A stretch of DNA of 62,800 nucleotides. Source: a virus (taxonomy: Duplodnaviria > Heunggongvirae > Uroviricota > Caudoviricetes). This document shows, piece by piece, positions 1,240 to 57,722 of the stretch. The first letter of the stretch is position 1; every line of letters starts with the position of its first letter. Location of the stretch: IMG/VR virus record IMGVR_UViG_3300042544_003430. One strand, 5' to 3'. The position numbers and the translations under genes were made by a program. Under the pieces are notes generated by a model. The model saw only the letters and a program-made list of their open reading frames with translations, was not told where the DNA came from and made no database searches.

Positions 1240-3348
1240 ATGAGAAAAGTATACGACTTCTCCACATTCAACTTCATTTACGAAGCAGAAGCTGCAGCAG
1301 CTCCAAAAGCAGAAGCAGCTCCGGCAGCAGCAGGAGCACCAGCTGCAACAGAGGCTAGTAAACTTTATGACAAGACGTTAGGTCTTATCATAACCACAGC
1401 TTTAAATTCTTACAGTTCAGAATTATCATTTCCTAGTAAACCTTATGATCAGAATATAGATGCTGACATTGCATCTGTAAAAGCTGTAGGAGCGACAGAA
1501 AAACCAGCAGCTCTGGTAAAGATCATGGAAAAAGTTAAAGCTGCTTCAGCAGATAACACTTTAGAAGGAGCAAAAGAAGCAGTAGATGCTTGGGTTGCTG
1601 CAGGAACAAAAGCAACTGAAGCTCTTAGCAAAATGATTGATCAGTATAAAGACAAGCCAGAAGAGCTTAAACACATTAACGATTTTGTTAATGCCCGCCT
1701 TGATGCTTACTTGAAAGGGATTCAAGATTCATCTAAGGCTAATACTCTTAAGGGAGCTTTAACTAAACTAGCAAATGAATCTAATTCCTATGAAGGATCT
1801 GATTTTATTTTCGAAGGAATTCTAGAAGGAAAAAAAGGAATGATCGGGGATATCTCTAAACAGATAACTCTAGTTAATGCTAAGCTTGCATCCCTTTTAC
1901 AAACTCCAGGAATGGAAGCTGATGTTAAGAGACTTCAAAGCGAAGTAACTAAAATCTCAGCAGATATGGGAGCTCTTTTAGCGAAGAAGAATAGCGAAAT
2001 TAGTAAAGACGATATCAAAAAAGCGGCGGCAAGACTTGCAGAAATACCAACTGAAGCAGATCAAGCAGCAGAAAAAATGCTTAAGCAAGATACTACTAAT
2101 AAAGAAGCAGCAGCAATCCTAGTTCAAGCATTAGGTTTAGTTGATGAAGCTAAAGATAAAGAAGTTGTTTATCTCGGTAAAAAAGAAGAAGCTTTACAAA
2201 AAGAAAAAGCAGCATCCTTCGTCAAATACGATAAAGATAAAGCTGGTGAAGCTAATCCTAAAGTTATGGAATTCCAAAAGCTTGTAATGGACAAATTTAA
2301 GGACGTTAAAGGAATTTCAGGTCTTTCTCAATTCAAAAATATGGGAACGTCTGGTAAATTTGGTCCAGCTACTGCATCAATGGTAAAAATTCTAAAAGAT
2401 GGTTACGGACTTAAAGATTCAGATTCTTCTGATATTACAGGTGAACTTTTTGCAGAGCTAAAGAAAAATGAAGAAATCAAAGAATCTAGAATACTTACTT
2501 TTGAAGGATTTGCAGGAATTAACGAAGGATTTAACGTTGAAGCAGCAACTAAATCTGCTTCTAAAAATACTTCAGGTGGAGGAAGTAAAAGTGGGGGAAG
2601 TAAAAGCGGAGGAAAATTTCTATACAAGAAAGGAGACACTGGTAACGTTGTTGTTGCGATCAATAGAATAGTAGGTCAAAAAGAAGACGAAAAGAAATAC
2701 ACAGATGATACTGTAGCAAGAGTTAAGGAATTCCAAAAACTTAATAGATTCAACGTGGACGGGATTGTAGGGGAAGATACTTTAATAGGACTTTACGACA
2801 CTAGAGGTGAGTCAAAAAAACAAACTAAATTAAATGATGCAAAAGCTGTAAGAGGACCATGGTCTTATAAGATATTAGCGGATCTTCTAAAAGAAGTTTA
2901 TACAGAAACTAAAGGTAAAGCTAAAGAAGAAGGAACCTTGACAGATGAAGATATATTAGGGGAAACTTCAGGACTATCTTCCTTTATTAATACTATACTT
3001 CCAGCAGCTAAGTATGCAGCATTTCTAGGAATTGCAGGAATACCGGCAGCTGTATTAGGAACTTCCATAGACGCTCTTAAAGATAGAAGAAACGGAGTTA
3101 AAGGAGTAGTAGACGCTCTTGATGGGTTTGTAAAAGAATCTGATCTTGCTTATGTTTTAACTATTGTTAAAGCTCTATCTGGTAAGAAAATGAAGGATGG
3201 AACTTCTGCAATTGAAAGATTTAAGAAGTTATATAAAATGGACGAAGGAGAAGATCTAAGAGAAGACGTTGAAAGCGTAGGAACCAAAACTATGTCAGTT
3301 AAAGGAGATCTTATTAAAGAGGAAATTCTTAAATTGTTAGGAAAATAA
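1240..3348 (+). CDS. Putative internal virion protein with two peptidoglycan-binding-like domains
   Basis: PGBD-like segments KVMEFQKLV...GKFGPAT and YKKGDTG...VKEFQKLNRFNVDGIVGEDT. N-terminal and internal F-x-x-F...I-x-E motifs. Late-type motif upstream. Confidence 0.55.
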   Translation: MRKVYDFSTFNFIYEAEAAAAPKAEAAPAAAGAPAATEASKLYDKTLGLIITTALNSYSSELSFPSKPYDQNIDADIASVKAVGATEKPAALVKIMEKVKAASADNTLEGAKEAVDAWVAAGTKATEALSKMIDQYKDKPEELKHINDFVNARLDAYLKGIQDSSKANTLKGALTKLANESNSYEGSDFIFEGILEGKKGMIGDISKQITLVNAKLASLLQTPGMEADVKRLQSEVTKISADMGALLAKKNSEISKDDIKKAAARLAEIPTEADQAAEKMLKQDTTNKEAAAILVQALGLVDEAKDKEVVYLGKKEEALQKEKAASFVKYDKDKAGEANPKVMEFQKLVMDKFKDVKGISGLSQFKNMGTSGKFGPATASMVKILKDGYGLKDSDSSDITGELFAELKKNEEIKESRILTFEGFAGINEGFNVEAATKSASKNTSGGGSKSGGSKSGGKFLYKKGDTGNVVVAINRIVGQKEDEKKYTDDTVARVKEFQKLNRFNVDGIVGEDTLIGLYDTRGESKKQTKLNDAKAVRGPWSYKILADLLKEVYTETKGKAKEEGTLTDEDILGETSGLSSFINTILPAAKYAAFLGIAGIPAAVLGTSIDALKDRRNGVKGVVDALDGFVKESDLAYVLTIVKALSGKKMKDGTSAIERFKKLYKMDEGEDLREDVESVGTKTMSVKGDLIKEEILKLLGK

Positions 3349-39385: not shown

Positions 39386-39937
39386 ATGGCTGGATTACCA
39401 CATTATCAAAATTCACTGTTTGGGATAAACAAATACGAACCTGTTTACCTCAACCAGTTTGAGGTTTTAATTACCCCTCCTGGACCAGTTCTGGGTGGTA
39501 ATATTCTACTAGAGCAAGTAACAAATATAAACGGGATGGCAGTTGATAAAACTCCGGCTCCTGTAGAACAGAAGTATAAATTTGCAACTAGAAACTATTC
39601 AGGAGCAAAACCCGATACTACAACATTTGACTTGGGAATTTCATTTTCGGTTAACTTGAATGATGCAAATTCTATGTATGTTTTTAAAACCCTAAGACAA
39701 TGGACAGATTTGATTTACAATCCTATAACAGGAGCAATGGGTTTAAAAAGAGACTACACAGGAACTATTGTCATCTCAGTTTTCAATAAGCAAGGGGATG
39801 TATTTAGAAGAATAACTTGTAGAGATTGTTTTCCTTTGAAAGGTATAGATGCTATGGAATTAGATTATACTTCAACTGAACTATACGCTATCAATATGAC
39901 TTGGGCAGTAGACTATTGGGACGATCTGTTCTTATAA
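39386..39937 (+). CDS. gp19: Tail tube protein, copy 1
   Basis: Follows the sheath; EPVYLNQFEV...RQWTDLIYNP...DCFP...TWAVDYW. GATAAATA at 39357. Confidence 0.8.
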   Translation: MAGLPHYQNSLFGINKYEPVYLNQFEVLITPPGPVLGGNILLEQVTNINGMAVDKTPAPVEQKYKFATRNYSGAKPDTTTFDLGISFSVNLNDANSMYVFKTLRQWTDLIYNPITGAMGLKRDYTGTIVISVFNKQGDVFRRITCRDCFPLKGIDAMELDYTSTELYAINMTWAVDYWDDLFL

Positions 39938-39952
39938 AATAAATAAAAATAA

Positions 39953-40531
39953 ATGGCAGGACTACCACATTTTACGAATTCCGCAGCAGGTATTAAACTT
40001 TACGAACCAGTTTATTTAAACCAGTTCGAGGTTATCATTACCCCTCCTGCTGCTGTTACTTTGGCCAATACAAGGTTCAAAGGAGAGGGAATATTAACCC
40101 AACAGGTAAAGAAAATATCAGGATTAGCAGTAGACATACAACCATCAGGTGCAGCTGTTCAGAATTACAAATTTGCTGAAAGAAGATATGCAGGAGGAGC
40201 TCCTGGAGATACTTCAGTTACTTTTTCCGTAGATTTTGAAGTAAATTTAAATGAACAAAATTCGATGATCATCTATAAGATCATGAGACAATGGGCGGAT
40301 TTAATTTACAATCCATTAACTGGTGCGATGGGTCTGAAGAAAGACTACGTTGGATCTATGGTAGTTTCAATCTTCAATAAGCAAGGGGACGTATTCAGAA
40401 GAATTAGTCTTAACAATTGCTTCTTAACTGAATCAATAAATGAAATGGCTTTAAATTATGGTGCGGGGGAAACCTTATATGAATTAAACACTTCTTGGAA
40501 AGCAGATTACTGGCAAGATCAATTCTTATAA
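39953..40531 (+). CDS. gp19: Tail tube protein, copy 2
   Basis: Clear paralog of 39386 (MAGLPH, EPVYLNQFEV, GAMGLKxDY, FNKQGDVFRRI). Confidence 0.8.
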   Translation: MAGLPHFTNSAAGIKLYEPVYLNQFEVIITPPAAVTLANTRFKGEGILTQQVKKISGLAVDIQPSGAAVQNYKFAERRYAGGAPGDTSVTFSVDFEVNLNEQNSMIIYKIMRQWADLIYNPLTGAMGLKKDYVGSMVVSIFNKQGDVFRRISLNNCFLTESINEMALNYGAGETLYELNTSWKADYWQDQFL

Positions 40532-40632: not shown

Positions 40633-41718
40633 ATGGGACTAGAAGATCAAGGAATTTTAGGAGGATTATCTCCAGAAGAAATACTTTCTATGAAAGAAAG
40701 AGAAGGTGGAATCGTTTATGATGATCCTGTTTTGGAACCTGCCCCTCCGTCAGAGCCTAAAGAGCCTTTGGAATCACAAAATACAATGGATCCAGTCTCT
40801 GTTTATCAGGAAGAACCAATTAGTCTAGGAAGAGTAGAAAATAGAATTCGTAGGCCTGACCCAGAACCTCAATTCAGTCCAGGTCTTGATTTTGGATGGA
40901 AAAATTTACCTCTTAATATTCTTCCTTCCAAAGGCTGGTTTTATCCAGACGGAACAAAGATTGCTATTAGAGCAGCAGAAGTTAAAGAGATTAGACATTA
41001 TTCGACTATAGATGAGGATGATCTAATAGATTTAAACGAGAAACTTAATTTCATATTAAGTAAATGCTGTACCATACATTATCCAGGAGAAGGAGTAGTT
41101 TCGTTCAAGGATTTAAAACAGGAAGATAGATTCTTCTTGATTATGGCAATTCGGGATTTAACTTTTGTTCAAGGTGAGAATAGAATAATTATAACTCCAG
41201 ATACAAATTGTGAAGATAAAAACGTTTGTCCCCTATCAAACGGAATAGAGCTAAGAACTGGTATTTTATCCGATTATGAGATAGACTCAAAAATTATGAA
41301 ATACTATTCCCCGATGGATAGACTCTTTATTTTACCTGTAAAGAAATTGGGAAAAGAAATTAGAATGTCTGTTCCTTCCATAGGAATCATGGACGAGATT
41401 ACTTCTTTTGTTGTAGAATCAGAAAGAAAAGGTGTTGAAGTTGACGAAAGCTTTATCAAGATTGCTCCTTTTATTTTCGAAGAATGGAGAGGTCTTAATT
41501 ACAGAACAATAAGCGAAAAAATGAAAGAATCGGATTCTTGGTCTAAAGAGGAATTTTCTTTGTATTACGAACTTTCAGAAGCTATTAAAATCGGAACAAA
41601 GTTAGATATTAAACTAAATTGTCCAACCTGCGGTGCTGAGGTCGCCGCACCAATAACGTTTCCCTTCGGGTTCAAATCTCTTTTCGTTATTTCAAATATC
41701 TTTGGAGAACTTCTTTGA
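40633..41718 (+). CDS. Baseplate hub/tail assembly protein (T4 gp26-like)
   Basis: LPSKGWFYP, DRFFLIMAIR and C-terminal CPTCG; position after the tubes. Confidence 0.55.
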   Translation: MGLEDQGILGGLSPEEILSMKEREGGIVYDDPVLEPAPPSEPKEPLESQNTMDPVSVYQEEPISLGRVENRIRRPDPEPQFSPGLDFGWKNLPLNILPSKGWFYPDGTKIAIRAAEVKEIRHYSTIDEDDLIDLNEKLNFILSKCCTIHYPGEGVVSFKDLKQEDRFFLIMAIRDLTFVQGENRIIITPDTNCEDKNVCPLSNGIELRTGILSDYEIDSKIMKYYSPMDRLFILPVKKLGKEIRMSVPSIGIMDEITSFVVESERKGVEVDESFIKIAPFIFEEWRGLNYRTISEKMKESDSWSKEEFSLYYELSEAIKIGTKLDIKLNCPTCGAEVAAPITFPFGFKSLFVISNIFGELL

Positions 41719-43970: not shown

Positions 43971-44591
43971 ATGGAAAAAGAATTGAAGAAAGAAAAGAAA
44001 GAAAAGAACATTCAGGTACTTGCTAACAGTTTTATTGAGCTCCGTAGCGAAAGAAGTTTTAAAGATCTGTTTGAAAGGGTGAAACCCGGAGTGATAAATC
44101 ACTGTTACACTATTTTAAAAGATTCGGAACTTGCAGAAGATGCGTTCCTAAACACAATGGCCAAGGTCTGGCTAAAAATAGACCAATACGATAGCTCAAG
44201 AGGAAATTTTTCCACCTGGTGTTATAACATAGCAAGGAATGAATCCCTACTGATTCTAAAGACTAGAAAGAAATACGTAACTCAATCCCTAGATGATTTG
44301 GAATATTCTTCTTCTAAAATGGAAGTTAAGAATCCATCCTACACTATTGAAGAAGATCCACTTTGGAAATTTGCTCACGACGGGGACAGTATAGACGATA
44401 TGTACGAAACTGCCATCGAGGAAATAAGATCTCTTCCTACCTTATACCGAGACATTATGATCGATAGAGAGATCAATGGAATGAAGTATAAAGACATAGC
44501 TGATAAGTATGGAATTAAAAAGAGATCCATAGCAACAAGGATCAGAAGAGCAAGAAACAAAATAAAATTAAAGATGGAGGAAATTAAATAG
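43971..44591 (+). CDS. Sigma-70 family (ECF-like) RNA polymerase sigma factor
   Basis: LAEDAFLNTMAKVW...FSTWCYNIARNE (region 2); LPTLYRDIMIDREINGMKYKDIA...IATRIRRAR (region 4). Confidence 0.88.
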   Translation: MEKELKKEKKEKNIQVLANSFIELRSERSFKDLFERVKPGVINHCYTILKDSELAEDAFLNTMAKVWLKIDQYDSSRGNFSTWCYNIARNESLLILKTRKKYVTQSLDDLEYSSSKMEVKNPSYTIEEDPLWKFAHDGDSIDDMYETAIEEIRSLPTLYRDIMIDREINGMKYKDIADKYGIKKRSIATRIRRARNKIKLKMEEIK

Positions 44592-48798: not shown

Positions 48799-48863
48799 AA
48801 AAATTGAGTTATTTTTAAAACTCGAATGAATATATAAGAGAAAAATTTCCTTAAAACAAGGAA

Positions 48864-48871
48864 GATATATA
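48864..48871 (+). promoter_or_regulatory. Putative late promoter GATATATA
   Basis: 24 nt before 48896. Confidence 0.6.
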
Positions 48872-48895
48872 AACTGTAAAAAAACAAACAGGAAA

Positions 48896-51757
48896 ATGGA
48901 TTTAATAAACAAATTGCAAACCTTAAAAGAATCTACTCAATCGAGAGAAGTAAAAGATCTGTGTGAAGCTTATATTAATGAGCTTAAAAACGGGAACGAC
49001 ACAATCACAGAATCTAAAATCTCCGAAGCGATAGAATCTAAAATAGAGAATAAAATCTCTCCTATGGAAGCTCTGAGAAGAGAAGAAATGGATTTATCCA
49101 GATCAAGAGCACAAGCTATCTCTGAATCTTGGGGTGGTTTAGGAAATAAATTAGCTAACAAGAATGCAGGTTCTTACGTTGATGGAGCTAAAGATGAAGT
49201 TGCTAAACCAACTCAAAAACAAGGTCTTCTAAACGAAGCACTTGAAAGCATGGCTCAATTCGATCCTTCTGCTGCTTCATTTGTGAAGTCTAACAGAGTG
49301 GAAAATTTAGGTATTATGGAATCTATCTTAGATTTTTCTAAGAAAGGTATCTTCGATCACGGTAGCTTTAAAATTCTTTGCGAGAATTATGTTAATTTAA
49401 TTAAGAATAAAAATTTACCTGAATACATAGTTGCTGAGTCTTTCGTTAATGAATTCTCTAATTATTCTTGGGATTCTTCTGTAAAAAATGCAGTTAATTC
49501 CGTAACTGAATCAATCAATAACTTAAGACCTGAAATCGAAGCTTCTAAAGCTTTATATCAAATTGCTAACACTGGAAATTCATCTTTCTATTCTCCTGCA
49601 ACAGAAACTATCACTAAATGGTTAGTATCTGAAGGAAAATCTACAGCTGCCCTTTCTAAAGACCTTAGAGTTTGGTCATTCAATCCAATCATTAAAAATT
49701 TAATTAACACCCTAACTGTTTTAGAATCTAATGGTTCTAAAATGAATATCCCAACCATCAACGGAAATTCTGAAGTAAAGAAAATCTACTCTCCAGTATT
49801 AGTTGAAGGTAACAAAACTATCTTTGCAATAGGAAAAACTCTATTTGAAGGAAGTTCAGCTGGTGTTAGAAAACTAACTCAGAGAGACATTTCCATAATG
49901 GATAAAAACTTCCTGGGTTTATTAGAATCCTTCGTTTCGGAAAATGTTAAAGCTGACGATAAAGGTATTTCTATCTACGCTGGGGATACCAAAATTTCTA
50001 TCGTTTTAGAAAATGAATCGACTAAAGTTTATTTAAATAATGATCTAGTTAACTTCAGTGATTACAATCAACTTGCTAAATTAGTTTCTTTCAAAATCTC
50101 TAGAGGACTTGGTGCTAACGAAAGTAAAGTTATCAATGATTTAATCAGATTATACGAAAACTTTGATAAAATTGTAGAATTGGATTTTGCAAAATCAATC
50201 GTTTCTAAAGTTTACGAAGGTGCATCTGTTAGCTTGATTAAATGGGATGGTAAAATATTCCTACAAAGAGTTAATGAAGCAATGAGAGAAAATTCTCTAT
50301 TTAACGTTAACGGATCTCAAGCAGTTGGTATGGTAAGAGATTTCTTAAAATATGATATCTCTGAAGGTCTAACTGAATTCTTAGACGGAGAAAGAAGAAT
50401 TAAATCTATCATGCTTAACGATAGAAAACAGGTTATCGATAACATTTCGATAGTAGAAGGTGAAATGAAAAAGATCGAAGCTTTAGTTTCTACCAATCCT
50501 TTATACAAAGGTTCAAAACAACTTTCTGAAGCTTACTCTCTATTAGAAAAGGAATTACAAACTCTTAAATCTAAATGGTCTACTATCAATGCAGAATTAG
50601 ATTCTATGGATAACAACTCTACAGAAATTTCTGAAGAATTAATGGAAGATTCTAAATTTACAGTAGGTGACTATGTAAAAGTAAAAGAGAGCGGAAATAC
50701 TGGAAAAATTATTTCTTCAGATAGTAGCTCAGGTTCTTACACTGTTCTTTTAGATAATGGTAAAACTGGAGAATATGGTGTAGAAGATATTTTAGATCTT
50801 GAAGAAGCTTTCAAACAATCTTCTGAAGAAAATGCAGAAGAAGGTGAAGGCGAAGAGGTTAAAGAATCTGTTACTATGTCTAAAGCTCCTTCAACAGGTA
50901 AACCAGTTCACGGAAAAACTCCAGCTCAGGTTTTAAAAGCTAGCACTTCCTCTGCTCCAACAGGAAAAGATCAAGATAAAGACGGAAAAAAAGACGTTGA
51001 AAATCTTAAAGATGCAAACTTAGAAGAAGCTCCAGAAGATAAAAACAAAGAAATTAAATACGAAGCCGAAGACGGAATTGGATATAACTTAGGTGAATCT
51101 CAAGATTCCCTAGTTTCAGCTCCTGAAGGAAAACCTAAAGGAACTAACATGGCTACAGAATGGGAGAAATCAGGTTTAAAAGCTATGAATCTAGCATCTG
51201 CTCCAGGTAAAGCCGAAGGTGACGCTGATTATGCTATTGAATATCCAGATCCAAAAGCTTCTAAAAGCCCAGAGATTTCTAAACTTAGCCCTAATTTAGC
51301 ATCTGCTCCAGGATCAGGTAAATCTAAAATGGACGAAGCATCAGATCTTTCTAAAACAAATCAAGAATTAGCTGAAGCTCCAGGAGGATCGCATGAAGCG
51401 GATTACAAAATTAAAATCAATATCCCAGGTGCTTCTAACCCGGATAGCGATAACTTAGCAACATCTAATTTAGTAGTAGCCCCTGAGAAAGGTGCTAAAG
51501 TACCTACTAAAGATTCTACAAATCCTAACTTCGCAACCTCTCCAGGTAAAGAAGAAGGAGACGCAGGATATGAAGTAGAATACTTAGATGTTAAATCTTC
51601 TAAAAATGCAGACATCGATAATTTAGATACTGCAAATCTAGCAGAAATTCCAGCTAAAAATACTCAATCCCAAATTGACATTGAAGTTAATGCTGAAATG
51701 GGATACAACTTAACAGAAGGTTTTGAAAGACCAAGTCCCGAATTAAAAAAAAATTAA
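48896..51757 (+). CDS. Large putative prohead core/internal head protein with SH3/KOW-like domain and C-terminal (N)LAxAP repeats; likely -1 frameshift extension to 51930
   Basis: Many I/L-x-E sites; FTVGDYVKVKESGNTGKII domain; repeated NLASAPGK/LAEAPGG/GYNL units. Confidence 0.55.
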   Translation: MDLINKLQTLKESTQSREVKDLCEAYINELKNGNDTITESKISEAIESKIENKISPMEALRREEMDLSRSRAQAISESWGGLGNKLANKNAGSYVDGAKDEVAKPTQKQGLLNEALESMAQFDPSAASFVKSNRVENLGIMESILDFSKKGIFDHGSFKILCENYVNLIKNKNLPEYIVAESFVNEFSNYSWDSSVKNAVNSVTESINNLRPEIEASKALYQIANTGNSSFYSPATETITKWLVSEGKSTAALSKDLRVWSFNPIIKNLINTLTVLESNGSKMNIPTINGNSEVKKIYSPVLVEGNKTIFAIGKTLFEGSSAGVRKLTQRDISIMDKNFLGLLESFVSENVKADDKGISIYAGDTKISIVLENESTKVYLNNDLVNFSDYNQLAKLVSFKISRGLGANESKVINDLIRLYENFDKIVELDFAKSIVSKVYEGASVSLIKWDGKIFLQRVNEAMRENSLFNVNGSQAVGMVRDFLKYDISEGLTEFLDGERRIKSIMLNDRKQVIDNISIVEGEMKKIEALVSTNPLYKGSKQLSEAYSLLEKELQTLKSKWSTINAELDSMDNNSTEISEELMEDSKFTVGDYVKVKESGNTGKIISSDSSSGSYTVLLDNGKTGEYGVEDILDLEEAFKQSSEENAEEGEGEEVKESVTMSKAPSTGKPVHGKTPAQVLKASTSSAPTGKDQDKDGKKDVENLKDANLEEAPEDKNKEIKYEAEDGIGYNLGESQDSLVSAPEGKPKGTNMATEWEKSGLKAMNLASAPGKAEGDADYAIEYPDPKASKSPEISKLSPNLASAPGSGKSKMDEASDLSKTNQELAEAPGGSHEADYKIKINIPGASNPDSDNLATSNLVVAPEKGAKVPTKDSTNPNFATSPGKEEGDAGYEVEYLDVKSSKNADIDNLDTANLAEIPAKNTQSQIDIEVNAEMGYNLTEGFERPSPELKKN

Positions 51758-51930
51758 AATCGGCACTGAGTAGAGTTTGGTCTTTTGCTCCTGAAAATGA
51801 GGAGGAAGAATCCAAGAAAACAAAACCAGACGTGGAAAGTTCAGAAGGAAAAATGAGTGTAGCTCCAGACGGTAAAGAAAAGAAAGCGGAGACTATAGAT
51901 CAGGAAGAAGAAGGACAAGAAAAAGAATAA
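51751..51930 (+). CDS. -1 frame extension of 48896..51757 (59 codons)
   Basis: After the A9 run the -1 frame reads KLKSALSRVWSFAPENEEE...MSVAPDGKEKK...EKE* and fills the gap up to 4 nt before the next ATG. Confidence 0.6.
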   Translation, partial: KLKSALSRVWSFAPENEEEESKKTKPDVESSEGKMSVAPDGKEKKAETIDQEEEGQEKE

Positions 51931-51934
51931 AGAT

Positions 51935-52234
51935 ATGCAAAATTTACAATTATACGAAGCATTTGGAAAAGGACCTGCTAATGCAGTTAACCCTTTATTC
52001 AAAAAGAATTTTCTAGATATGGCTACTAAAGCTTTCGGCTATAAACTTAGCGGAGAAACTTTAAGCAGAGATATTGATGGTGTTAAATCTACTATCGTAG
52101 TTAAAGATTCTGGAATTAAATCCGATCTGACTGGAGAATATCCGTTAACTAAAACAAAGTCAGTTGACTATGTTAAATTCTTAGTTAAAGTGGCAGACGA
52201 AGCTAGAAAAGAGGCTAAAAAATTAAAAAAATAA
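51935..52234 (+). CDS. Small hypothetical protein, putative internal head protein
   Basis: Leader MQNLQLYEAF. Confidence 0.55.
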   Translation: MQNLQLYEAFGKGPANAVNPLFKKNFLDMATKAFGYKLSGETLSRDIDGVKSTIVVKDSGIKSDLTGEYPLTKTKSVDYVKFLVKVADEARKEAKKLKK

Positions 52235-52236
52235 GA

Positions 52237-52884
52237 ATGAAGAACGTTAGATCATTTGAGGATTTCCTTAACGAAAAAAGAACATTTTTAGGAGAAAGTA
52301 TTTTCCATGATGTTCAACCCGATAATTATTTCGAAGGTATAATCTTTGAAGCAAAACAATTTATAGATCAAGCAGAGCTTGCAAAAGAGGTTAAAAAATC
52401 TCTTGCAGATGGAGAGACCGTTTATGTTAAAATGGTTGGTAACCCACACAGACCGGTTAGAACTGTTTCCCATAAATTAGGTAAACTATTCATGGACTTG
52501 GTTAATTCTATAGCTTATGGAGAATTCAGAAAAAGATGGCCTAACCTAAGCGAAGAGCAATTTGATGAATTAATTTCTCTCACTTTGAAAGATCTTCTTT
52601 TAGATTGGCACAAGAGTGTAGACAAGCCAGGATTAACTGACGGACAAATCTACGGAAACTTAAGAACTTTAATCAAAACCAGAATGCTAGGTGCTAATCA
52701 CCAGATCATGAGAAAAGTTACTCAAGAACCTCCTGCTTCTTCTAGTGTTGACTACGATGCGATCGATAAATCTATCAACAAAATCCTTACAGGAAAAACC
52801 GATAGACTTTACAGACCTGCAGTTAAAGCTCCAGAACAAGGAGAAAAAAGCTGGTTTGACGAGCCTATGGAATACGAAGACTAA
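52237..52884 (+). CDS. Divergent gp55-like sigma-factor paralog with capsid-targeting-like leader
   Basis: QFIDQAELAKEVKKSLADG aligns to NYVKNSDLMRAIMESKEKG of 52996, with later blocks also colinear. Leader MKNVRSFEDFLNE. Confidence 0.5.
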   Translation: MKNVRSFEDFLNEKRTFLGESIFHDVQPDNYFEGIIFEAKQFIDQAELAKEVKKSLADGETVYVKMVGNPHRPVRTVSHKLGKLFMDLVNSIAYGEFRKRWPNLSEEQFDELISLTLKDLLLDWHKSVDKPGLTDGQIYGNLRTLIKTRMLGANHQIMRKVTQEPPASSSVDYDAIDKSINKILTGKTDRLYRPAVKAPEQGEKSWFDEPMEYED

Positions 52885-52919: not shown

Positions 52920-52965
52920 GAAACCAAATCCGCACCTAGTGATATAATACATTAAGTGCGGATTT
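52920..52965 (+). promoter_or_regulatory. Class III motif GAAAC-N18-TATAAT nested in a long hairpin (probable terminator of the upstream operon)
   Basis: AAATCCGCAC (52926-35) pairs with GTGCGGATTT (52956-65); TATAAT (52943-48) is in the loop; T-rich tail follows. Confidence 0.6.
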
Positions 52966-52995
52966 TATTTTTACACTAATATCAATTAAAAAACA

Positions 52996-53352
52996 ATGGC
53001 AAATTACGTAAAAAACTCAGATTTGATGAGAGCAATCATGGAATCTAAGGAAAAAGGAGTTTTAACCCCAGAAACTATAGATATGTTTTACCTTATGATT
53101 CATGGGATATCTAAAAAAATGTCTTATAAGGATCCAGAAGATAAAGAAGACTGTATGGCTTTTGCAATGGAGGATCTTTGCAAATACTGGAACAGATTCA
53201 ATCCTGAGAAATCAAATAATCCGTTTGCATATTACACTCAGATTGCAAAGAACGGATTTGCTAAAGGATGGAAGAAAATTCACCCACCAAAATCACCTAA
53301 AACTATACCTTTCTCGCATATTACCGGAGACGAAAACTCATATAACGTTTAA
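52996..53352 (+). CDS. gp55: Late-transcription sigma factor (T4 gp55-like)
   Basis: NYVKN..L, EDC..FA...L.KYW.RFNPEKSNNPFAYYTQIAKN motif. Confidence 0.8.
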   Translation: MANYVKNSDLMRAIMESKEKGVLTPETIDMFYLMIHGISKKMSYKDPEDKEDCMAFAMEDLCKYWNRFNPEKSNNPFAYYTQIAKNGFAKGWKKIHPPKSPKTIPFSHITGDENSYNV

Positions 53353-54477: not shown

Positions 54478-56094
54478 ATGGCAGGTTTTATAGAAAATCC
54501 ACAAGGAAGTCCAATATTTCAGAGAATTCGAGATTCAGTTAAGGGCCTTAGTAATTTCGGACTGAATTATGGAGACATGGTAGTAAAAAATTCTCAAGCT
54601 ATCGGTCAGACCGAAGCAGCCTTTCTAAAGAAAGGTCTAATTGAGGATGAAACCATGCTATATGCTTTAGCAAGACAGGATACCTCCACAAAACAGTATG
54701 TTTCTTATTTTGATAAGGATTATAAAGGAAAAAGAGATTATCTAAGAAAATTTTCTCTTAATCCAGAAATAGAATTTATTCTGGATACTGTAAATGACGA
54801 AGCAATATCCTATGACACTCATAATTTCTTTGCTTATCCTGCATTTTTAAATCTGACTGGATTAAAAGAAAATATAACTAACAGAATAAACGACAATTAT
54901 AAGAAGTTGTATGACATGTTTGGATTTACTGATGACATCACAGCTTGGCAGTATTTCAGACAATTTTTAGTTGATGGTTTTATTGCATTTGAAATCATCT
55001 ATGATGACAAAGGAAAGAATATCATAGGGTTTAAAGAAATTGATGCTATGACCCTAATGCCTTCTGTGGAGAAACAAATGGATGGCACCTATTTAAACGT
55101 ATGGTGGCAGTATTTTAAAGACCCTAGAAAGAAAAGAATGCTATATGATTCCCAGATAATTTACATCTCTTACGCGAAAGGTAACACAGTGTCTAGAGTA
55201 AGTTATACCGAAAGATTAATAAGACCTTACAATATTCTTAGAATTATAGAATATACTAGAGTTATCTGGTCCGTAATGAATGCTTCATTTAGAATGAAGA
55301 TGACAGTTCCGATCGGAACCAGATCCCAGCAAAAAGGGATGCAAACATTAGGTGAGTTAATGAGTATCTATAAAGAGGATATTACATTAAATGACCAGAG
55401 TGGAGAGCTTTTTGTTAACGGAGCACCTAAGATTCAGTTCTTCAAAAATTACCTAATGCCTTCTGGAGTTAATGGAAGTCCTACAATTGAACCTTTAAAC
55501 AACGTGGGTCCAAACTTAAATGATCCAGCTCCTCTTGCTTATTTCTTTGATAAATTAATCAACGAGTCAAAAGTTCCTAATTCCAGATTTACCGGTCCTG
55601 ATGGAGGAACTATGGGTAAATATGCAAATGCCGCAGAAGGACTTGATAAACAAGAAATAAGATTTGCTAAATTTATTAATAGATTAAGAACTTCTTTCCA
55701 GGACATTCTGATAAAACCTCTCTGGATTCAAATGTGTAAGGATTTTCCTGAGCTGGAAAAAGATTACATGTTCAAGAGCCAGTTAGGGTTAGATTATGTT
55801 TCGGACAATCCATTTACTAGAAATCAAGAGATGGAAATTATCACCAAGAAAAAAGAAGCAGTTGATGGTCTAATAGCTTTAACCGATGACACAGGAGGGG
55901 GATTTTTCTCTGTTCCTTATTTAATAGAAAATTACTTGGGGCTGAGCGCAGATGATATAAAAGCAAATGCTGAAGCTAAGAAGAAAGCAGAAAAATTAAA
56001 GAAAGAAGGAGCAGCACCAGCCGCAGGAGCAGCACCAGCCGCACCAGCAGCACCAGCCGCACCAGCAGCAGAACCGGCACCACCAGCAGCTTAA
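54478..56094 (+). CDS. gp20: Portal protein, copy 1
   Basis: PEIEFILDTVNDEAI, FRQFLVDG, ISYAKG.......SY.ERLIRPYN.LRIIE, YFFDKLINESKVP.SRF, EIRFAKFINRLR. Confidence 0.82.
   Translation: MAGFIENPQGSPIFQRIRDSVKGLSNFGLNYGDMVVKNSQAIGQTEAAFLKKGLIEDETMLYALARQDTSTKQYVSYFDKDYKGKRDYLRKFSLNPEIEFILDTVNDEAISYDTHNFFAYPAFLNLTGLKENITNRINDNYKKLYDMFGFTDDITAWQYFRQFLVDGFIAFEIIYDDKGKNIIGFKEIDAMTLMPSVEKQMDGTYLNVWWQYFKDPRKKRMLYDSQIIYISYAKGNTVSRVSYTERLIRPYNILRIIEYTRVIWSVMNASFRMKMTVPIGTRSQQKGMQTLGELMSIYKEDITLNDQSGELFVNGAPKIQFFKNYLMPSGVNGSPTIEPLNNVGPNLNDPAPLAYFFDKLINESKVPNSRFTGPDGGTMGKYANAAEGLDKQEIRFAKFINRLRTSFQDILIKPLWIQMCKDFPELEKDYMFKSQLGLDYVSDNPFTRNQEMEIITKKKEAVDGLIALTDDTGGGFFSVPYLIENYLGLSADDIKANAEAKKKAEKLKKEGAAPAAGAAPAAPAAPAAPAAEPAPPAA
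56011..56091 (+). repeat. Ala/Pro tandem repeat tail of portal 1
   Basis: gcagcaccagcc-type 9-bp units encode AAPAAGAAPAAPAAPAAPAAEPAPPAA. Confidence 0.85.
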
Positions 56095-56117
56095 AAAAAG
56101 ATAAACAAATAGAATAA

Positions 56118-57722
56118 ATGGCAGGTTTTTTAGACGCTAACCCACAGAATAAATTTCTAACTCAAATGTACAAAAATTTGAGTCGAATAGGAAAATTTGG
56201 GATGCAATATGAGGATATGGTTATCAAGAACTCACAAACAATTGGGCAAACAGAGTCCCAGATGTTTACTGAGGAGGGAACTGGTTTTACTGAAGACAGT
56301 GCTTTTTATTGGACCCTTGGATATCAAGATACGAGAATAAGAAAATATATTGCTTATTTCGATAAGGATTATCTTGGTAAAAGAGACTTTCTTAGAAAGT
56401 TTTCCCTAAATGGGGAGATTGATTTTATTTTGGAGACTATTTCAGACGAAGCAATTAATTATGACGATAAGAACTTCTTTGCTTATCCAGCTTTAAACAA
56501 TATAGATATCAAAGATAAAATTCTCGATAAGGTACAGGAGAATTTTAAAACAATTTATATGTTGTATGGATTTCAGCAGAACAACCTGGCTTGGCAATTA
56601 TTCAAACAATTTCTAATCGATGGATTCCTTTCTTTTGAAATTGTGTATTCTACAGACGGAAAGAAGATAGTAGGTTTTAAAGAATTGGACCCAACTTCGT
56701 TGCAGCCTTCAACCCAAAAGGCTCCAGATGGATCTTTCGAACAAATCTGGGTTCAGTATCCAAAAGATACCCAATTAATGAGAACATTAAAGTCTGAACA
56801 AATCATCTATATTTCTTATGCTAAAGGTAATTCTATTTCTAGAGTAAGTTATGTAGAGAGATTGATTAGATCTTATAACATCCTAAGAGTAATGGAAAAT
56901 ACCAGAGTTATCTGGAATGTTATGAATGCTTCATATAGACTTAAGTTTGTAATTCCAGTTGGAACTCAGTCCCAGCAGAAAGCAATGCAAACGCTAGGCC
57001 AGCTTATGTCTTCTTATAAGGAAGATGTTACTATTAATGATACCTCGGGGGAATTACTAGTTAATGGAGCCCCTAAGGTTCAATTCTATAAAAACTATCT
57101 ATTCCCCGAAAAAGATGGTCAATCCCCACAGATAGATGTTCTAAACGCAAATGGGCCAGACTTTAACGTAATGGAAAATGTGATTTATTTCTACAATAAA
57201 TTGAAATTAGATTCTAAAATTCCTTATGCTAGATTTGCAGGAAGAGGAGCAGCACCAACAAATTATCAAATTGCAATAGATCAATTAGAAAGGGATGAAA
57301 TTAGATTTGGAAAATTCTTGGTCAGATTAAGGTCAATTTTTCAGGAAATAATAGTAAAACCCCTATACATTCAAATGTGTCTAGATTTTCCTGAACTTTC
57401 TAAAGATAGAATGTTTAAATCTAATTTAGGCCTTTCCTTCTGTAGCGAAAATCAATTCGAAGAACTTCTAAATCTATCTCATCTAACCAAAGCTACAGCT
57501 TTCGTTACTGCTCTTGGTGATATGAAATATAAGGAAGGTGAGGAAGAAAAACCTTATTTCGATAAGGATTTTTTGATTAGAAGATTTCTTCCTCTATCTA
57601 GAGACGAATTCGAAAAAAATAAGTCTTATAAAGAAAAAGCAGCTAAAGAGGCAGAAAAAGCCAAGAAAGAAGCAGGTGGAGCAGAAGAAGGTGGAGCAGA
57701 AGCAGGATCTATCACTTTATAA
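56118..57722 (+). CDS. gp20: Portal protein, copy 2
   Basis: Colinear full-length paralog of 54478 (YFDKDY.GKRD.LRKFSLN, EIRFGKFL.RLR). Confidence 0.82.
   Translation: MAGFLDANPQNKFLTQMYKNLSRIGKFGMQYEDMVIKNSQTIGQTESQMFTEEGTGFTEDSAFYWTLGYQDTRIRKYIAYFDKDYLGKRDFLRKFSLNGEIDFILETISDEAINYDDKNFFAYPALNNIDIKDKILDKVQENFKTIYMLYGFQQNNLAWQLFKQFLIDGFLSFEIVYSTDGKKIVGFKELDPTSLQPSTQKAPDGSFEQIWVQYPKDTQLMRTLKSEQIIYISYAKGNSISRVSYVERLIRSYNILRVMENTRVIWNVMNASYRLKFVIPVGTQSQQKAMQTLGQLMSSYKEDVTINDTSGELLVNGAPKVQFYKNYLFPEKDGQSPQIDVLNANGPDFNVMENVIYFYNKLKLDSKIPYARFAGRGAAPTNYQIAIDQLERDEIRFGKFLVRLRSIFQEIIVKPLYIQMCLDFPELSKDRMFKSNLGLSFCSENQFEELLNLSHLTKATAFVTALGDMKYKEGEEEKPYFDKDFLIRRFLPLSRDEFEKNKSYKEKAAKEAEKAKKEAGGAEEGGAEAGSITL

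Follow-up and report, generated by a model that had tools for sequence, protein, structure and literature searches.

Three routes are known by which phages redirect host transcription: they make sigma factors once infection is under way, they package a whole RNA polymerase, or they package enzymes that modify the host's machinery. The locus described here raises the question of whether a sigma-type subunit may be sent ahead in the capsid as well. In the window (the whole stretch of 62,800 nucleotides that was analysed, from the Caudoviricetes record IMGVR_UViG_3300042544_003430), the last gene of a three-gene operon is an open reading frame (52237..52884, + strand) for a 215-aa protein resembling gp55 and sigma region 2, hereafter the target, and the gene after it encodes a second, shorter protein related to gp55, the late sigma factor of phage T4. 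The N-terminus of the target reads MKNVRSFEDFLNE, as the original prediction stated, and resembles the capsid targeting sequence (CTS) of T4. We hypothesize, with a probability of about 0.4, that the target is a second late-made factor of the gp55 type, built of sigma region 2 only and provided with a CTS-type propeptide, which would be taken up into the head and carried to the next cell.

The gene, its relatives and its operon

The target open reading frame is real and conserved. Its relatives in metagenomes number 46 (44-98% identity), some of them on contigs of 390-400 kb, and the same order of genes recurs in each of 18 related loci: a 953-aa protein, a small protein, the target, a hairpin, the gp55-like protein, gp4, gp2 and the portal. 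Identity across these loci is 72-79% for the target, 86-92% for the gp55-like protein, and mostly 92-94% for the portal (one partial match has 89%). When 1.8 billion representatives were searched exhaustively with a profile, only 5 proteins came up, all within the target's narrow family, and tblastn against 50,697 phage records in GenBank returned zero matches at E values up to 10. Sequence-profile searches of Pfam, PHROG and the PDB with the target gave no match to a sigma family, and neither the target nor any of 17 relatives matched PF04542 or phrog_234 at E up to 0.1-1.

The phage to which the window belongs is huge and T4-like. For its portal and gp55-like proteins, the closest counterparts are in LR756500, a 462-kb uncultured phage, and in the Prevotella Lak megaphages. 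In LR756500, the nearest sequenced relative, the target gene is absent from the corresponding spot, where a 617-aa homologue of the first operon gene directly abuts the gp55-like gene. Three features of that genome may be recorded in passing. A 537-aa open reading frame (L022:6394-8007), with an N-terminus that is GIY-YIG-like by eye, lies between the gp55-like gene and gp4 and shares its terminal residues, AEIYSI, with the preceding gp55-like protein, as if an insertion had duplicated the gene end. The family B DNA polymerase is split (noted at L024:1174-1944), and one piece extends from the DTDS motif into what is, by eye, a putative intein; two genes upstream of this piece, on the same strand, stands a 254-aa open reading frame that is sliding-clamp-like by eye.

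Ahead of the operon stand two copies of a promoter motif of the late type, ATATATAA, which start at 48830 and 48865 (48830..48872, + strand). Its first gene (48896..51757, + strand) encodes the 953-aa protein, which has low-complexity AP-rich repeats and a homologue of which always precedes the target; the second (51935..52234, + strand) encodes a 99-aa protein (109-111 aa in relatives) with the same type of leader as the target. The operon is closed by an intrinsic terminator, a hairpin followed by a T-run (52920..52975, + strand; dG -19.2 kcal/mol, z -6.6), which is kept in 18 of 18 related loci. In its intergenic DNA, upstream of genes, the window has three conspicuous classes of motif: ATATATAA, ACCGTATATT, and GAAAC-N17-TATAAT. 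All 11 copies of ATATATAA are on the + strand; 9 are intergenic and closely precede genes, among them those of the neck and tail sheath, and one further copy lies just upstream of the portal gene. The form CGTATATT occurs ahead of nucleotide-metabolism and ligase genes (6 copies, 1.65 expected), and GAAAC-N15-19-TATAA ahead of the UvsX, clamp-loader and gp55-like genes (8 copies, 2 expected). With ATATATAA upstream, a terminator after it, and no copy of the other promoter classes inside the operon, the target is most likely made late, from a transcript other than that of the gp55-like gene. The original prediction had placed it in a late head operon: the first adjective agrees with the two ATATATAA motifs, while the second draws only on adjacency, the gp4, gp2 and portal genes lying in the next transcription unit, past the terminator.

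Some smaller features of the region deserve mention. The GAAAC-N18-TATAA motif of the gp55-like gene sits inside the terminator hairpin, with its -10-like hexamer in the loop; this combined element is almost invariant in the 18 related loci, and may have two roles, stopping read-through from the late operon and acting as the promoter of the gp55-like gene. At the end of the first operon gene (51740-51930), the 953-aa reading frame finishes in an A9 run (A AAA AAA), after which the -1 frame stays open for 59 further codons with the same AP-rich repeats and stops 4 nt before the next gene; frameshifting may be programmed here, or the homopolymer may have been misread in sequencing. Two pairs of tandem paralogues also occur: two full-length, diverged T4-type portal genes (54478-57722; 538 and 534 aa), both present in relatives too, and two tail-tube genes (39386-40531; 183 and 192 aa), both of which match phrog_32623 and tail-tube families.

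Relation to gp55 and predicted fold

The 118-aa product of the adjacent gene (52996..53352, + strand) matches PF04542 (E 1.2e-5) and phrog_234 (E 8e-15) and is aligned with T4 gp55 by hhalign at 96% probability (E 2.4e-9), which points firmly to a true gp55 relative. It consists of sigma region 2 only, and stops where the helix-loop-helix of T4 gp55 starts. Members of this family share a conserved C-terminal tail, F-S-x3-G-x2-N-x-Y-[NS]-[ILV], which is distinct from both the T4 motif and the tail of the target and could be a docking motif of its own.

The original prediction had aligned the target with this neighbour in four blocks. By BLASTP, the two proteins are joined in the third block only, at an E value (0.27) that is not significant; by hhalign, the two families align over 66 columns with P 8.9e-4 (probability 23%), and with P 1.9e-3 when a wider alignment is used, while three control comparisons for the target family gave P 0.098-0.6. 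The register that hhalign chose is the one proposed earlier for blocks one to three. The fourth pair, GQIYGNLRTLIK and NPFAYYTQIAK, was not recovered: it lies outside the significant 66 columns, and in the wider alignment the stretch is aligned only with gaps and at low confidence. Compared directly with T4 gp55, the target family gives P 0.6, so that its link to the T4 protein is seen only via the neighbouring family and through structure. Kinship with the ECF-like sigma of the window (43971..44591) was also considered, and rejected (hhalign P 0.3).

The predicted structure agrees with the profile alignment. Residues 41-162 (52357..52722, + strand) are modelled by AlphaFold as a helical domain like sigma region 2, with pLDDT mostly above 80 (80-95 in the core), and with helices at residues 45-58, 79-97, 106-128 and 135-162; a short helix follows at 175-185, and residues 186-215 are modelled as a disordered tail. 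A beta-hairpin, spanning residues 61-75 in the model, forms a family-specific insertion (residues 61-76; 52417-52464, + strand). The original prediction expected a fold of the sigma-2 type, and that is what the structural searches returned. Among 48,161 PDB representatives searched with VIA-align, T4 gp55 (7d7d_F) came first (Z 8.6, rmsd 2.5 A, 98 residues), followed by about 30 sigma region-2 domains with Z 5-7.6, the first unrelated protein having Z 4.7; the model of a long relative, P0045, matched pro-sigmaK (Z 9.4), gp55 (Z 9.2, 128 residues) and sigma32 (Z 8.5), with about 30 sigma region-2 domains again heading its list, values of 8-9 being middling for helical domains by VIA-align's own note. 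In Foldseek, the best PDB match of the target model was again gp55 (7d7c_F; E 0.11, probability 0.92), and a shape search of the ESM Atlas returned small viral sigma clusters (TM 0.66-0.70, by the target). The models were built on shallow alignments of 17-18 sequences, and those of the target and P0045 overlap. From the uniformity of the match lists and their agreement with the profile alignment, the predicted fold reads clearly as sigma region 2.

Region 4, with its helix-turn-helix, is absent from the protein of the window. Three long variants (P0045, P0046 and P0048) have a C-terminal helical domain in place of the tail; considered as a possible region 4, this domain matches generic helix-turn-helix DNA-binding domains only (Z 4.6-4.7). 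Taken as a claim of remote homology, the description of the target as a divergent gp55-like sigma holds, with a fold and a profile match (P about 1e-3) behind it. Its description as a paralogue, in the sense of a recent duplication, is not supported, the homology being remote and the gene lacking at this spot in LR756500.

The N-terminal leader

The target begins with a leader, residues 1-13 (52237..52275, + strand), which resembles the CTS of T4 (PMC8442874) and ends in L-N-E. In the alignment of the target family, M1, N3 and F7 are invariant and F10 almost so, the leader being the best-conserved part of the N-terminus; of the 17 relatives aligned, 13 have [LIV]-x-E as residues 11-13. In T4, the targeting sequence MKTYQEFIAE is removed once the protein is inside the head (PMC8442874), and head proteases of the T4 type cleave behind a Glu residue, as they do in Alt at the sites ITE and LTE (PMC5694885). 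The L-N-E of the target fits such a prohead-protease site, to judge from its sequence. The original prediction is thus borne out in what it said of the leader, namely that it resembles MKTYQEFIAE and ends at a Glu site, and the peptide proves to be conserved as well.

The leader also recurs on other proteins. In the window, its motif occurs at three open reading frame starts (1240, 51935 and 52237) and nowhere internal to reading frames; in the related loci it occurs at 18 starts, as against 4 of 1936 internal Met positions. The small protein upstream of the target bears in the relatives a full copy, MKNLMTFGELNE. Within the wider clade, 80 loci with the major capsid gene contain 50 open reading frames with the same leader type, many of which are immediate neighbours of the capsid gene: a conserved gene bearing the leader starts, in about 30 related contigs, some 110-140 nt downstream of the major capsid gene (324-395 aa in loci L049-L101, e.g. 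L052:7796-8983), and other such genes sit just upstream of it. Leaders flanking the capsid gene, such as MKRVKSYNEFIAES, have the F-I-A-E of the T4 CTS. Of eight tagged capsid-flanking genes annotated with PHROG, seven were without a match, and the eighth (in L040, downstream of the capsid gene) had weak matches only. A T4-type head protease (PF03420) is encoded between the portal and capsid genes of LR756500; the window itself has no head protease gene. The remaining tagged protein of the window, encoded at 1240-3348, has 702 aa, the leader MRKVYDFSTF..., and a region with a weak likeness to endolysins (phrog_1493, E 4.9e-5), with two ATATATAA motifs upstream of its gene (1123-1239); it is a candidate for a second late, tagged protein. 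The shared leader could have a role other than capsid loading.

If the leader does load the capsid, a course of events can be proposed, in which we infer that the target is cleaved, packaged and delivered, and that it binds RNA polymerase and reads DNA. The target, a second and strongly diverged gp55-type factor with a sigma region-2 core, would be transcribed late from its three-gene operon, with the neighbouring gp55-like gene having a middle-type promoter of its own. Its first 13 residues would dock it into the assembling prohead, where a T4-type head protease would remove them after Glu13. The mature factor would then enter the next host cell with the DNA and capture the host polymerase at once, the region-2 domain sitting on the beta' clamp helices and reading a single -10-like element. 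The fuller version of this proposal, in which a capsid-packaged sigma-like subunit for the host polymerase, tagged with a T4-type peptide, is injected with the genome and reprograms the first round of transcription, we regard as rather doubtful. The class II motif, which looks early, resembles a -7 element of Bacteroidota hosts, and early genes may therefore need no packaged factor.

Rival readings, significance and known systems

A somewhat unlikely possibility, and the rival that survives best, is that the target is a gp55-type factor acting in the producing cell, as a specificity factor for late or very late genes or as a partner of the truncated gp55-like protein. As a partner it would make up for what the truncated protein lacks, namely a fourth helix of some length, one more helix, and a tail that docks on the sliding clamp or on some other platform, and the leader would not be for capsid loading. 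The evidence of fold and profile is the same for this reading as for a packaged factor, and the two genes adjoin in 18 of 18 loci. The helix-loop-helix at whose start the 118-aa neighbour stops is required in gp55 for T4 late transcription (PMC7892883), and helices 135-162 and 175-185 of the target, with its tail, match the layout of the gp55 linker and clamp motif. The tail in question is K-S-W-F-D (52846..52860, + strand), a candidate docking peptide by its conservation and its place in the part modelled as disordered; as K-S-W-[FY]-D, it is invariant in the target family and confined to it across all loci read. (The idea that it might be a general tag was dropped, as no other family carries the motif.) This tail nevertheless differs from L-D-F-L-[LYF], the clamp-binding motif of T4 gp55 (PMC7892883 supplementary table 2), which is absent from the tail of the target, and P0045, P0046 and P0048 have a helical domain where the tail would be; a sliding clamp gene was not found in the window or in three related viral fragments. 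Moreover, the target stands behind late-type motifs and so could not initiate late transcription, and a factor for the producing cell leaves the conserved leader without explanation.

We consider it improbable that the target is a sigma decoy, the alternative named in the original prediction. Such a protein would occupy the beta' clamp helices and block host sigma without reading DNA, and would shut off host transcription late in infection or on delivery. A sigma region-2 fold without region 4 would suit a decoy, as would the acidic helix at residues 106-123. In gp55 the contacts with the beta' clamp helices are made by acidic residues of helix 3, E70, D74 and E77, and the flipped bases of the -10 element are held in pockets of N13, F86, H95, Y97 and T99 (PMC7892883). 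Residues of the target were mapped onto these through two chained hhalign alignments and the T4 structure paper (PMC7892883). The invariant E111 maps to E70, L115 to D74 and the invariant K118 to E77, and the lysine opposite an acidic residue of gp55 suggests that the beta' interface may differ; on the DNA side, the near-invariant Q45 maps to N13, and S127 to F86. The best-conserved stretch of the target family is residues 127-149 (Y139, N141, R143, K147 and R149), a patch at the start of the long helix near Y97 and T99 of gp55, with Y139 and N141, both invariant, outside the significant alignment. In sigma factors, region 2.3/2.4 reads the -10 element. The strongest conservation thus falls on the part that would read the -10 element and is not limited to the helix that would face beta'; we infer from it that a pure decoy is less likely than a factor that reads DNA. 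A decoy would, besides, be in competition with three sigma-like factors of the phage itself.

Contact with the polymerase, on which a decoy and a DNA-reading factor agree, was modelled by co-folding residues 38-190 of the target with residues 200-360 of the beta' subunit of Flavobacterium johnsoniae (RPOC_FLAJ1). The median score was 0.57, against 0.00 for the best of 3 controls, and it passes a mark that 58 of 80 solved complexes attain and that 2 of 110 mismatched pairs attain as well, in a low range (scores up to 0.60) that includes 7 of those 80 complexes and both passing mismatches. The runs share at least 52% of their contacts, with a partner pLDDT of at least 69. Complexes of sigma with beta' have already been solved, and the pass may thus reflect memory or likeness only. 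The co-fold, which the original prediction had suggested as a check, lends weak support to binding of the target to the beta' clamp of RNA polymerase.

Very improbable, finally, is a helical assembly or structural protein with no part in transcription, such as a relative of the gp26/gp51 baseplate hub or a component of the head core: late expression and virion-gene neighbours would suit it, and 12 of 17 family members weakly match PF12322 (T4 gp26/gp51; best E 0.0024) and 11 of 17 match phrog_150 'baseplate hub', but the PF12322 matches of members examined individually reach 14-16 bits where the cut-off is 24.5, they span about 50 residues and come from closely related sequences, hhalign with T4 gp26 gives P 0.098 (probability 0.6%), another open reading frame of the window (40633..41718), right after the tail-tube genes, weakly matches the same family, and sigma domains make up nearly all of the 30 best structural matches. 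On the sub-threshold matches and the hhalign result, we rejected a baseplate-hub identity.

Should the packaged factor that we prefer prove true, a sigma-type subunit carried in the capsid would be a fourth route by which phages redirect host transcription, and a widespread, undescribed N-terminal tag of huge phages would gain a cargo with an assayable function. Even without packaging, the locus adds a third sigma-like gene that profile annotation missed, and it points to a division of labour, in the group related to Lak phages and Mahaphages, between a gp55-like protein that is truncated and a region-2 protein that is longer.

Several known systems offer comparisons. Group 2 jumbo phages, including the Lak megaphages, encode several sigma-type factors (Iyer et al. 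2021, PMC7824862), and the window is like them in having two such factors, an ECF-like sigma that is complete (43971..44591) and a gp55-like one that is minimal; no third sigma-like protein that bears a leader and is expressed late is described in that survey (PMC7824862), and no leader-bearing or packaged sigma-like protein was found in the T4 and jumbo-phage literature searched. T4 gp55 (PDB 7D7C/7D7D; PMC7892883), the best or second-best structural match of the target, likewise consists of sigma region 2 with no region 4, and has in common with the model of it a last helix that is long, another helix after that, and a disordered tail with a short conserved hydrophobic/acidic peptide. Unlike gp55, the target has no detectable membership of a sequence family, a 16-residue beta-hairpin insertion, about 40 extra N-terminal residues including the leader, K118 in place of E77, a tail of K-S-W-[FY]-D in place of L-D-F-L-Y, and a position behind late-type motifs.

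The leader has its counterpart in the CTS of the internal T4 proteins IPI, IPII and IPIII and in the propeptides of Alt and gp24, which are N-terminal peptides of 10-13 residues. Its consensus, M-K-x-[ILV]-x-x-[FY]-x-x-F-[ILV]-x-E, and the Y-Q-E-F-I-A-E of T4 both end in (L/I)-x-E, and both peptides head unrelated proteins, several of the genes in the present case lying beside the capsid gene; the leader of the target is three residues longer. For a packaged protein that acts on the host RNA polymerase, T4 Alt is a precedent. Phages like phiKZ and SPN3US, and those like N4, load an RNA polymerase into the head that is ejected with the DNA and starts early transcription (PMC5694885, PMC7598289). 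Where those phages package a whole polymerase, the phage of the window would putatively package only a specificity subunit for the enzyme of its host.
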